From NCBI GenBank assembly GCA_951406725.2, contig OX597815.1:118358001-118422000 (forward strand): a stretch of 64,000 nt of DNA. Reading direction: 5' to 3'. The notes beneath the pieces were generated by a model. That model had not been told where the DNA came from. It was given only the letters and a program-made list of their open reading frames with translations, and made no database searches. Shown here piece by piece: positions 1,971-58,729 of this stretch. Source of the DNA: Octopus vulgaris (lineage: Eukaryota). Numbering within the stretch: position 1 is the stretch's first letter; every line of letters begins with the position of its first letter. A program made the position numbers and the translations under genes.

Positions 1971-3438
1971 TATATACACGTATACATACATACATACATA
2001 CATACATACATACATACATACATACATACATACATACATACATACATACATACATGCATGCATGCATACATACATACATGCATACATACATACTTCTTCT
2101 ACTTGATGAGTATAAGTTATCATTGTTCTTTTATACCTACCCCAGACTGCTCGAAGCTTACAAACTTCCTACGCTTAGAGCTTACAATTACATATCGATA
2201 ATATATATATATATATATACAAGATAAGAAAATGGAGAAATACATCTAAATCAAATATCAATTACCAGATAATACTCAATCACATACTTTATTAAAACAC
2301 CATATAAGAGACTGTAGGGTTAAACATAAAAAAGCAGAACAAATCAGTGTACATAAAGGAATGTACATAAAACAGTGTACATAAAAGAGTAATGTTGTAT
2401 AATAAGTAGAATATATATAAAAAAGAGAATATAAATATAAGTAAATCTAAATATAGGTATAGATTACATCTTACAGCTGTTTCGGCCATATATATATATT
2501 ATACACACACACACACACACATATATATATATATATATATATAAATAATTAAATACATATGTGTGTGTATGTATGTGCTTATACTTGTGTTTGTGTGTAG
2601 CGTGTTTCCCTCAACATCATTGTTGATTACTTTATCCTTATGTACTGATCAGACCATTACACTACTGATATATATATATATATATATATATATATATATA
2701 TATATATATATATATATATATATATATATATATATATATATATGTATGTATGTATGTATGTATGTATGTATGTATGTATGTATGTATGCATGCATGTATA
2801 CGTTGGCTTCTTTCAGCTTGCATCAATCAATTCACTCAGAATGTTTTGTTCGGCCCGAGGCTATAGTAAAAAAATTGCCTAAGGTGCCTCGAAGTAGGTC
2901 TAAATTTGAAACCATGTAGTTGGAAAGCAAACTTCTTATCAAACACCTACACTACGCCGATAACAAAAACAAAACTTTATTTTAAAATCTTCACACGAAA
3001 ATTAAAAATAATCTCAAAGTTTGACACCCTGAGAACAGATGCCTTATAAATAATGTAATATGCAAATTCAGAACTATCACTTGCATCTTCTTTTATATAC
3101 ACAGGTGCAAGTGTGGTTGTGAGTTTAACAAACTCGCTTCACCAGCAATCACGTAATTTCGGGTTCAGTCCCATTGCAAAGCATTTTGGCCAAATTTATT
3201 TTATTACAGTCTTGGGCTAAACAGTGTTTTTGAGTGAATTTAATTGACGGAAACTGTATGGAAATCCGTCGAGTACATACATATACATATACATACATGC
3301 ATACATACATACATACATACATACATACATACATACATACATACATACATACATACATACATACATACATACACACACACATATATATATATACATACAT
3401 ATATATACACACACTATATATATATATATATATATATT

Positions 3439-3543
3439 TATCAAACTAAAATTATTGAACAAACAAATGCAAGGTCATCCGCATATCATGAAATGATATG
3501 CGGATGACCTTGCATTTGTTTGTTCAATAATTTTAGTTTGATA
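3439..3543. repeat. Perfect 51-bp-arm palindrome with GAA loop
   Basis: 3439-3489 is the exact reverse complement of 3493-3543. Confidence 0.95.
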
Positions 3544-5275
3544 TTTTTGTCTCTTTCAATAGAGCACTTCTATAGCAGTCCTATTAATCTTTTTGTTCCT
3601 GACAAGAAACAATCACTGTATTATTGATATATATATATATATATATATATATATATATATATATATATATAACGTAAACACACACATACATATATATATG
3701 TGTGTATGTATGTATATACATGCATATATACATACATATATGTGTGTGTATACATACATACATACAAACACACATACATACATACATACATACATACATA
3801 CATACATACGTACATACATACATATATACATATGTAAGTGACACTATTTTTGTGTTTGACCATCACTACCACTTGACAACTGTGTTGGTTTGTTTACGTC
3901 TCTTGTAAGTGAGCAATTCGGCAAAAAAGAAAAATGAAAACGATACAGAAATTGCCAAACTTAAAACTATGCACTGGACTTGATTTGTTCGACTCAACAC
4001 TTCAAGCAGTGCTCCAACGTGGCCACAGACCAATAACTGAGACAAATATGAGAGTAAAAGCATTTGACGAAAGAAAAAAAAATGTTGGGCAGTGATTAAT
4101 ATTAACGAGATTTTCTGCAATTAATCTTGTTGAAATTTAAAGAAAACTTATTGAACATGTGAATGATTCAATCTTCGTAAGCTTATGTCGTGCCCAGGAC
4201 TCGTTCAATGTTTGTTTTCATAGTAGAGAATGAACCTTTTTTCTTTCTTTATTTTCTTTGCGTAATTGGATTAATTAGATTTGTGTAGGTGTTCAGTTCA
4301 GATAAATACACAGTATCTTGTAATGCTATTTGACACTTGCTTAATTAAGGTTTTTAACGGATTACTTTCATAGTTTGATAGTAATAAAGTGTTAGTTTGG
4401 TCACTACATACACATTCCGATATTTAATATATCTCTGAAACAATAATTACATATAATACAGGGTCACATTTAAACAATGTAGCGGGTTGAAAAATCTTCG
4501 ATCAGCTGGGGTTATCCAAGCAATCAGTAGACAAAAACTCCCACTAAAACTGATTAAAATCTAAAAAATGATAACCAAGAGAGAAAGAGATAATTCCAAT
4601 ACGATGGAATTTTTGGAACTATATGGACAATAGAAACTGAAATGAGTTTTAGTAGAGGCATTTTCCTTGTCTTTGTTACCCTACCATGTGACCTTCGGGC
4701 CAGTTCCACTGCGTGGCACCTTTAGCAAGTGTTTTCTAGTATAGCTTCAGACAGAACAAAGCATCGTGAGTAGATTTGGTAAATAGAAACTGAAAGAAAC
4801 TCGCCGTGTGTGTATGTGTGTGTGTGTGTGTGTGTGTGTGTGTGTGTGTGTGTGTGTGTGTGTGTGTGTGTCTGTGCGTGTGGGTGTGTGTGCGTGCATG
4901 CGTATGCGTTGTGTGTTTCTTTTTGTCCTCCATCATCGCTTGACAACTTAACAGTTCTGCAAAAGAGACCATTGGAATAAGTACCAGGATCAAGAATAAG
5001 TACTGAGTTCTATTTGTTCGACTAAAACCCTAAGGGCAGTGCTCCAGCATGACCGCAGTCTTATGACTGAAACGAGTAAATGATAAAAGATACAAGATCC
5101 GAGAGCAGGATTTTGTCTACTAATTGCTCAGATAAATCAGTTGACTAAATTTTTCACCTAGCTATATATTATATATATGAGACCCTGTTACCTTCGTATT
5201 TATTATGTAGAATGCTCTCCTACCTGAGGCACGTTCTCTCAACCAAACTGTTAATGCCAATAAAGTACAGCTATG

Positions 5276-5678
5276 GGCGGCGAACTGGCAGAATCGTTAG
5301 CACGAGGGGCGAAATGCTTAGCGGTATTTCGTCTGTCGTTACGTTCTGAGTTCAAATTCCGCCGAGGTCGACTTTGCCTTTCACCTTTCGGGGTCGATTA
5401 AATAAGTACCAGTTACGCACTGAGGTCGGTATAATCGGCTTAATCCGTTTGTCTGTCCTTGTTTGTCCTCTCTGTGTTTAGCTCCTTGTGGGTAGTAAAG
5501 AAATAGGTATTTCGTTCTGAGTTCAAATTCCGCCGAGGTCGACTTTGCCTTTCATTCTTTCGGGGGTCAATTAAATAAGTACTAGTTACGTACTGGGGTA
5601 GATGTAATCGGCTTAATCCCTATGTCTGTCCTTGTTTGCACCCTCTATGTTTGGTTTCCTATAGGCAATATAGAAATA
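5276..5678 (+). mobile_element. tRNA-derived SINE family A, internally duplicated, with 17-bp TSD
   Basis: Head ggcggcgaactggcagaatcgttagc, B-box gagttcaaattcc, core gcctttca.ctttcggggtcgat..aagtaccag. TSD aataaagtacagctatg at 5259-5275 and 5679-5695. Confidence 0.9.
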
Positions 5679-56374: not shown

Positions 56375-57141
56375 TATGAATTAGAAGCAGCTTGAGGTAT
56401 ATAAGCAAAATCGAACACACGTACACAAGATCCGTGTATTGTTAGTTCGTGGGTCGGTTGCATTTTTAGGAGTAAGATAATATATTCTCAATGTCCTGGT
56501 GTTAAAACACCTGAAAGTATGTCACAGGCAAGCGAAATAACTTACATTATGTTCCTTCTCAGAGCAGCAGACATCGATGTTTTGTCATTCTTGTGACTTT
56601 TCAATGCCGCATACCGAGCAAGGCCTGTTTCGAGAAGGGACCTTATGTGAGTTGTCTCGCTTGCGCATGACTTACTTTCAGGTGTTTTAACACCAGGCGC
56701 ATTCAGAACACATACTCTTACCCCTAAAGACGCAGCCGATCCACGAACTAACAACACACCTTATGTATGCGTGTTCGATTTTGTTTATATTCATCGAGCT
56801 GCTTCTAATCCATATTTGAATTTTTTCTGTGGCATGAAACGTTGGGACATACCAGCAGATGATTTTCAACCCATTTAGCTTATAGTCACATTCGGTGACA
56901 TAACTTGGAGAAGGTCTTGTTCGGTACACAGCAATGAAAAGTCACAATAATATCGAAACATCGATGTCTGTTGCTCCGAGGAAGAACCTGATGTACGCTG
57001 TCTTGTTTGCGTATGACATACTTACAGGTATTTTAACGCCAGTCACTTTGGGAAGATGTTCTCTTACGCCTAAAAAACGCAGTCGACCCACAAACTAACA
57101 ATACACACGCCTTGTGTATGTGTGTTCGATTTTGTGTATAT
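56375..57141. repeat. Three-armed foldback: one forward copy and two inverted copies of a ~190-230-bp unit
   Basis: 56632-56814 is the diverged reverse complement of 56375-56560. 56912-57141 is the diverged reverse complement of 56398-56626. Confidence 0.88.
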
Positions 57142-57199
57142 ATATATATATATATATATATATATATATATATATATATTACTTTTTACTTATTCTTCA

Positions 57200-57700
57200 A
57201 ATAAAATATACGAGACAGACGAAAGATAGAAAGGATACTGGGAGGTAGCCGAGGATTTGGAAAGACTGTTAATATTTCCACGCAAAAAAAAAACGACAAA
57301 AAACTGGACTTGATTCTATGGAACACAGAACGGAGAATTTGAATTTTGCTAGAGCTGACAGTGCCATGGAAAGACAACATCGCTAATGCAGAGCAACAGA
57401 AGGAGAAGATGTATTAAGCGAAGAGTGCGGAGAAGAGGGATGGACTGTCGAGTATTATCACCTGGCTTCATTGAAAGGAAAATGACGACTTTATACAAAA
57501 GAGCGTTTTCTTTTTCGAGCTCAGAGCTGGGGAAAGTAATAAGGAGGATACAAGAGGCAGTCGAAAAAGCCAGTTTCTATATATGGCTGAAGCGAGAAGA
57601 CCTAAAATGGCTTGAAAGCCATAAAAGGCCGATTGGGAAACAGCGTCGCTAGGTGAGACTGGTTGACACTTATGCAGCATCGCTGATTGACAGGTGGGCC
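57200..57700 (+). mobile_element. 3' end of a HERO-like RLE non-LTR retrotransposon
   Basis: DLILWNTERRI*ILLELTVPWKDNIANAEQQKEKMY...IQEAVEKASFYIWLKRED, matching the PDxxxW...ELTVPWE...AERK..KY pattern. Confidence 0.75.
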
Positions 57701-58729
57701 AAGGTAGCAGTCTCGTTCATAGCGCCTCCGCTTCTTGGTTCGAAGGCTTGTACCACCAAAAGATCTGATCAGCTCTGACAGCTGGAACCGAAACTAACTG
57801 TTGGAAGGCAGGTTTAGAGATGGCGCGGGCTAAAATTACGTGCCCTTCCCCTCCATTGGTCAGTTGAAGCTCAGTCAGTGTCACGTGACAGCTGGTGCTG
57901 GCAGCTGGAGCCTACCGGGGAGTATTTAAAGGGAATTTTGGCAGGATGGTCAGTTGTCTGCTGACATTTGTTAAAGCTGCATCAAAGACACCAAAGAACA
58001 GAAGAAAAATGGAGAAAGAAGAAATGCACTCAACACCAGAGCTGAGGACACCTCCGAAAGTTCATCTAGTTCTATATAGTTATCGCTACTTTTCATTAAA
58101 AAAGCCTTTATTTTTTTTTGATATTCAATGTGCATTTTCGCTTTATTTTTTCTTCCTACTTTCCCCATATATATATATATATATATGTGTGTGTGTGTTT
58201 GTGTGTGTGTGTATGTGTGTGTGTGTATATATATATATATATATATGTATATGCCCCAGCCTGGCCACAGCTCGTGAGCTAAAACTAGATTAAATAAAAA
58301 AATAATATATGTATGTATGTATATATGTATATATATATATATATATATATATATATATGTGTGTGTGTGTGTGTGTGTGTGTTATGTATGTATATATGTA
58401 TATATATGTATGTATATATATATATATATATATATATATATACATATTCAGGCGGCTAAGAAGGGGAATGTTCCTTGTGTTGTGTCTTGTACTCTATTTT
58501 TTCGTTGTTTAAGAAAAATGTCCATTTCCTTGGTTTTGTGTTTATGCTTTCGTTTCTCATTGTGTTCGACGTTTTTTTGGGGGGGTGTCCTGTTCTCATA
58601 TATGCATGTATATATACATATAGATATACGTACGTACATATATGTATGTATATATGCATATGTTTTATTTATTATTTTGTTATTATATGTATGTATAGAT
58701 ATATGTATATATATATGTATGTTTTTAAT

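Follow-up and report, generated by a model that had tools for sequence, protein, structure and literature searches.

A 64,000-nt stretch of the Octopus vulgaris genome (assembly GCA_951406725.2, contig OX597815.1, positions 118,358,001 to 118,422,000 of the forward strand; hereafter the window, numbered from its first letter) contains short non-coding islands with hammerhead ribozyme motifs. These islands are probably 5'-truncated, often inverted 3' ends, i.e., pseudo-long terminal repeat (pLTR) remnants, of several unrelated endonuclease-positive families of Penelope-like elements (PLEs) inserted at TA-rich sites, a reading to which we assign a probability of roughly 0.75. The motifs, the inversions, two terminal tails of ~31 nt and a copy gradient weighted towards the 3' end of one island are observed directly. 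An initial annotation of the window had listed eight islands, labeled here by start position (A 2220, B 3439, C 7288, D 13389, E 17110, F 20920, G 49401 and H 57990), and viewed them as a possible dispersed system of retrozyme-like elements. Its association of the islands with PLEs, including the hammerheads, the inverted copies and the TA targets of such elements, finds support. The idea of one retrozyme-like system is not supported, as no intact hammerheads occur in tandem, F is 3'-anchored and 5'-truncated, B and D are ribozyme-free and H seemingly derives from another retroelement. The features that carry the argument are as follows.

21125..21423, + strand: island F, a 3' end truncated on its 5' side that belongs to a young, high-copy family and abuts (TA)n at 21424
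21147..21210, + strand: complete type I hammerhead of F, with its core at 21150, a stem I of 3 bp, a long stem II and a palindromic stem III
49398..49653, − strand: island G, solo terminal repeat plus inverted 55-nt copy, not TA-bounded
49484..49520, − strand: complete minimal hammerhead of G, with 4-bp stem I and 5-bp stem II closed by G-C
56081..56374, + strand: piece X, with a complete hammerhead (56231) whose stem I has 5 bp and whose loop III has 1 nt
56375..56626, − strand: piece L, a second family in inverted orientation, carrying a U3·A8-variant hammerhead (56604) and a 31-nt tail
56627..57136, + strand: pieces M and R, partial tandem with a 350-nt period (56785-57134), ending at (TA)n

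Hammerheads were searched for across the window (36% G+C, 75 listed microsatellites) using a minimal type I descriptor that included the extra base and the U3-A8 variant described in the consulted portion of PMC4209133. Two matches were obtained, at 21150 (+, island F) and 49516 (−, island G), a number reached in none of 500 block-wise dinucleotide shuffles (shuffle mean 0.028). A wider descriptor that allowed a short loop III added 56231 (+), making three complete type I hammerheads, which again no shuffle equaled (0/500, mean 0.062); both statistics are optimistic because the descriptors were tuned after the motifs had been seen. With one core change and at least 11 stem pairs allowed, 56231 and 56604 (−) were matched, a result that 2 of 200 shuffles also reached, while the F and G hammerheads fall below this stem threshold and are therefore not returned. 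The loose core pattern of the initial annotation produced four matches against a shuffle mean of 1.04 (9 of 500 shuffles had as many), one of which (26909) lies outside all islands. Complete hammerheads are thus present in two of the eight listed islands (F and G) and a 3' half in one (A), whereas the hammerhead-like motifs claimed for C (7382), E (17110) and H (58042) are degenerate and fail the descriptors, and neither descriptor finds a core in B or D. Rfam returned no hammerhead family among the 150 of 156 window matches listed, nor at island F, although a fit of minimal motifs to its models would not be expected. When single motifs were folded by minimum free energy, the hammerhead fold did not emerge, an outcome expected for motifs thought to act as dimers and not counted as evidence. 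Exact island motifs gave no matches in metagenome contigs or viral contigs.

The islands proved to be unrelated in sequence, as had been claimed; they share only chance-level matches of 15-24 nt with one another, they are also unrelated to a relic of an open reading frame (ORF) at 23560-25100, and no tandem array lies over any of them. Alignment confirmed the inverted repeats reported for B, C, D and G, but not for H, where no arms were found at E<0.1. The proposed bounding by TA or CA repeats applies to A, B, C and E, which are flanked by microsatellites on both sides, but only to the 3' side of D and F and to neither side of G. For five of the six listed motifs a microsatellite lies ≤270 nt downstream (background 0.17), a proximity that is partly circular because TA-bounded islands had been picked in the first place.

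The copy structure of island F was read from public runs. Twenty of the 24 listed public runs contain part of 19500-21423, all as contigs, and four were placed on 19900-21423; contig runs cannot reveal RNA ends, strand or level, and their summed depth is a rough measure, not a true copy number. In run X1 (single-copy level ~63), summed depth over F ranged from 44,892 to 841,594, and from 21124 up to the TA tract successive bins reached 711x and 802x single-copy (the ribozyme bins), then 2,418x, 6,653x, 13,337x and 10,772x. The preceding 20920-21123 stood at only 1-4x single-copy and is therefore flank, placing the 5' edge of F near 21125. The edge at 20920 given in the initial annotation was rejected on this depth and on the departure at 21125, while the intact core it described was retained. 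In run X14, from a related organism, one contig spans 20884-21125 and then diverges from the window sequence, and the F bins are at 0-47x; AT-richness alone thus does not explain the F signal, and the near absence of F from this organism indicates that the family is young. The shape of the depth profile fits a 3'-anchored family with heavy 5' truncation, and hence retroposition rather than a miniature inverted-repeat transposable element (MITE). Classification as MITEs had been named among the outcomes that would overturn the initial annotation, and the gradient speaks against it for F.

Depth across the predicted F cut (after 21207) forms a plateau of 44,892 followed by 50,637, with no step. 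Near the ribozyme, the listed variants are a T>C change at 21169, within loop II, and the loss of 1 nt at 21225. In run X12, a (TA)8 loose end behind 21346 was present in four contigs, so a second 3' end of F, 77 nt inside the first, is possible; as the locale of 21346 is itself TA-like, deletion could produce the same loose ends. No enrichment of F was observed in run X12, whose RNA nature is a guess (ribozyme bin at 0.015 of the neighboring peak of a short interspersed nuclear element (SINE)-like repeat, compared with 0.047 in DNA run X1), and run X20 was without F coverage; neither observation bears on expression. The upstream flank at 20817-21019 was at ~4x single-copy in run X1 (one contig at 250), suggesting a low-copy duplication.

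For island G, the initial description of arms plus core outside a TA context was borne out. Its arms (49398-49452 and 49599-49653) pair at 51 of 55 positions, and the complete hammerhead matched at 49516 lies 90 nt from the element end, with an extra base before stem II and a 2-nt palindrome in place of helix III. An inner direct copy of 15 nt (49586-49600, equal to 49429-49443) stops ~31 nt before the end, the length of the tail, and a 37-nt palindrome occupies the junction. No target-site duplication was seen at G.

The TA-bounded cluster at 56081-57136, which was absent from the initial list, also contains a complete hammerhead, that of piece X, with a predicted cut after 56280, 94 nt ahead of the junction with L. 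Pieces L, M and R are three copies of one family (80-83% identical), and L and M extend 31 nt past the end of R as a tail. The hammerhead of L has a 6-bp helix I and a 4-bp helix II, but its G12 is changed to A, indicating decay. R keeps GAAA at 56955 with a damaged 5' core and stem II, and M, which is without a ribozyme, starts 0-10 nt past the predicted cut site at a junction that is ambiguous by about 10 nt. With M lacking and R having a damaged ribozyme, two consecutive units with intact hammerheads were found neither here nor at any other island.

Close counterparts of these features are known from PLEs, as judged from the consulted portions of the cited papers. The pLTR hammerheads of Cervera and De la Pena (2014, PMC4209133) share the type I topology, a short helix I, a long helix II, the extra base before stem II, the palindromic helix III and the U3-A8 variant, and thousands of dispersed single motifs from truncated copies, some in opposite-strand pairs, are likewise described there. 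G fits their minimal motif (extra base, G10.1-C11.1, palindromic 15.2-16.2), and L shares the U3-A8 core described for Schistosoma PLEs. Differences are that the consulted portion names no cephalopod and that no ORF link is seen in the window. The hammerheads of F and X match, by eye, the Hydra-clade table of Craig et al. (2021, PMC8557442), in which hammerheads near the 3' end have a 3-4-bp stem III and a 0-3-nt loop, resembling F, X and the half motif of A. The likeness concerns ribozyme layout only, and assignment to that clade would need a reverse transcriptase (RT). Hydra-clade PLEs and octopus Naiads also combine (TA)n preference, 5' truncation, inverted copies and a 30-40-bp tail, although Naiads are without canonical hammerheads, and the inverted and partial tandem order of L, M and R is the layout given in the Fig. 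2 legend of the same paper. Penelope of Adineta vaga (PMC3846280) has an optional 31-bp tail like the 31-nt tails of G and L/M and, as in G, an inverted pLTR overlapping the direct one by 15 bp, junction palindromes and solo pLTRs; it differs in its low copy number, and its main text lacks the word microsatellite. A type I minimal or variant hammerhead is complete in F, G and X, altered by one core change in L and absent from B and D; an inverted head-to-head copy with a 31-nt tail is present at both G and L/M/R; and a 3'-anchored, 5'-truncated multi-copy family is evident at F, the island assessed for it.

An insertion scheme can be proposed from what is known of these elements. A PLE protein studied in vitro nicked AT-rich DNA and initiated reverse transcription at two internal sites, which delimit the tail; its template was mostly uncut RNA, the hammerhead cut only with the protein present, and no RNA-seq ends were seen at the PLE hammerhead cut (PMC11167929). 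For the islands, the GIY-YIG nuclease of the element would nick (TA)n or other AT-rich DNA, and the RT would start near the RNA end, at either of two sites separated by ~30 nt, giving the optional tail. Copying would usually stop after 50-300 nt, with most copies within 100 nt, and a second, inverted copy would often be added with a palindrome at the junction. The ribozyme would be kept, whole or in part, only in the minority of copies reaching it (~90-250 nt from the end), after which motifs would decay, and copies spanning the cut site would stem from uncut RNA. Such a scheme would account for F, G, X and L/M/R, although we infer the Penelope parent, its enzymes and any ribozyme activity rather than observe them.

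The remaining listed islands, apart from H, are smaller or less complete.

2220..2487, − strand: island A, TA-bounded piece beginning inside hammerhead stem II, 3' half only (2483)
3439..3625, no strand assigned: island B, TA-bounded, with a perfect hairpin of 51 bp and a further 82 nt, hammerhead-free
7288..7511, + strand: island C, two copies of one 3' end placed head to head in inverted orientation, with (TA)n on one side and (CA)n on the other
13389..13642, no strand assigned: island D, 30-bp hairpin followed by ~190 nt up to (TA)n, hammerhead-free
17113..17197, − strand: island E, short piece between microsatellites whose hammerhead-like motif is degenerate

The PLE explanation probably covers A, C and E. 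Taken alone, a 3' half of the A type does not exceed chance expectation (150 of 500 shuffles contain one), and its support comes from beginning 4 nt from the TA junction. The arms of C (7281-7352 and 7446-7516) pair in 65 of 72 columns; the inverted pair has no visible tail and contains degenerate hammerhead-like parts, namely GAAA plus a palindrome at 7354 without UH and the loose core at 7382. The motif of E resembles the Hydra-clade layout by eye only and fails all descriptors. B and D, with arms pairing at 51/51 (3439-3489 and 3493-3543) and 28/30 positions (13389-13418 and 13424-13453), respectively, may be PLE ends that stopped short of the ribozyme, or something else.

Several observations weigh against a PLE origin. 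Copy number was measured for a single island (F), no island is joined to an RT or GIY-YIG ORF within the window, and G is not TA-bounded. LINEs (long interspersed nuclear elements) that target microsatellites likewise leave 5'-truncated ends in repeats, according to the portion of the literature consulted. In addition, none of 12 island motifs occurs in the supplement of Craig et al., where line breaks could mask matches.

A rather unlikely alternative is that L/M/R, and perhaps F, are short, non-coding and non-autonomous units, retrozyme-like and derived from Penelope terminal repeats, which Penelope proteins would mobilize in trans using tandem or circular RNA. Animal non-LTR retrozymes, as presented in the consulted parts of PMC7229834 and of a 2026 preprint (bioRxiv 10.64898/2026.07.22.740005), are non-coding, carry a type I hammerhead and have units near the L/M/R period in size; the 350-nt period of M, tail, spacer and R lies inside their 150-450-nt range, and the same preprint makes the case that retrozymes come from PLE terminal repeats and leave monomers dispersed. 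The two helices of L and the start of M just past the cut site agree with this idea. However, these sources define retrozymes by tandem units, every one with its complete hammerhead, together with abundant linear and circular RNA, and such tandem units are lacking at every island. Partial tandems are also normal for PLEs (Craig et al. 2021, PMC8557442), the ambiguous M junction belongs to one diverged locus, and F depth shows a plateau instead of a step across its cut site. The 350-nt unit is therefore kept as a candidate, the one lead towards a retrozyme-like element, from a single old locus. In its specific form, which we regard as unlikely, 56375-57136 would be a cephalopod retrozyme-like footprint, a 350-nt non-coding U3·A8 unit for which self-cleaved tandem or circular RNA served the Penelope machinery as template, the upstream unit beginning at the cut.

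Very unlikely, in our estimate, is a mixture in which B, C, D and G are MITEs or arose accidentally by fold-back replication, the 3' end of a LINE makes up H and only F, G and X hold real ribozymes. It draws on the missing hammerheads of B and D, the descriptor failures of C, E and H, the 55-nt terminal arms of G, the ORF remnants of another type ahead of H, and reports of MITE and unclassified terminal inverted repeat families in octopus. Yet G combines its inner 15-nt direct copy and tail with an intact minimal hammerhead and shows no target-site duplication, the hairpins of B and D sit at one end and are not terminal, and the F gradient is not MITE-like. For B, D and H taken alone, this mixture is compatible with the PLE explanation.

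Two further features had been connected to the islands.

57179..58166, + strand: island H with its surroundings, a TA-bounded piece of 990 nt that has broken remnants of ORFs upstream and a loose core at 58042 failing the descriptors
23560..25100, − strand: possible decayed retroelement ORF, not confirmed as Penelope-like and with no link to any island

Weak arms and a core had been ascribed to H, neither of which survived analysis, and H is likely the end of a different, LINE-type retroelement. Broken motifs in the frames before it may be those of a HERO-type LINE restriction-like endonuclease, which databases did not confirm; protein database searches with the ORF remnants returned nothing relevant. 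Hero families are reported in O. vulgaris, and some HERO families target microsatellites in the portion of the literature consulted. The relic at 23560-25100 had been called Penelope-like, for which Pfam, phmmer and homologue searches gave no support: all three minus-strand frames were without a Pfam match, the single phmmer match was an unrelated repeat protein, and homologue searches of two frames were empty, the third having been searched against Pfam only. RT-like motifs are discernible across its frameshifts only by eye, and no search confirmed them.

Elsewhere in the window, an innexin gene has two exons on the − strand at 30050-31048 and 33317-33736 (Pfam PF00876, E 9e-59 and 2e-30). 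An abundant SINE-like family (5276-5678, 20601-20886, 27364-27850, 46015-46176, 53531-54150, 61071-61260 and others) has up to 11 overlapping self-matches per site and very high depth at 20614-20919 in all four runs, in which another very high-copy repeat (19900-20307) is also present. Further imperfect palindromes occur at 50398-50605, 55574-55630, 60738-60816 and 16973-17010, some inside SINE-like copies. A short frame at 18325-18826 beside a TATG tract ends in a zinc-finger-like C2H2 pattern, possibly the end of a LINE relic.

Overall, the islands are most likely not a new system but real motifs of a known kind, one already catalogued for cephalopods as (TA)n-targeting octopus PLE families, one with a 3'-terminal hammerhead. 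Naiad_Obim, Naiad_Ovul, Naiad_Omin and Hydra-1_Obim each appear with a preference for (TA)n in the consulted parts of Files S1/S2 of Craig et al. (2021, PMC8557442), which place the hammerhead of Hydra-1_Obim at 2403 of 2507 nt. The octopus Naiad 3' ends given there did not match the islands by eye, and that of Hydra-1_Obim was compared by its ribozyme row only; as the 12 motifs are missing from this supplement, the island families appear to differ from those in it and may be uncatalogued there. An O. vulgaris annotation from 2026 reports 31 Penelope-like families with recent activity, its main text being silent on hammerheads. In literature searches on octopus hammerhead ribozymes or cephalopod retrozymes only Craig et al. 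was relevant, and Dfam, Repbase, the O. vulgaris library and the preprint supplements, which were not compared, may hold these families.

Short PLE ends with diverse minimal hammerheads are dense in this region, where 64 kb hold three complete motifs along with several relics, and such ends may sit among the unclassified repeats of cephalopod libraries, which is mostly an annotation matter. If the retrozyme-like footprint at 56375-57136 were true, it would provide genomic evidence for ribozyme cutting in vivo. The family of F is young and restricted to its lineage and, judged roughly by depth, has hundreds of copies that carry the ribozyme; it is useful for asking about the conservation of the core, a pile-up of 5' ends at the cut and the role of PLE hammerheads.

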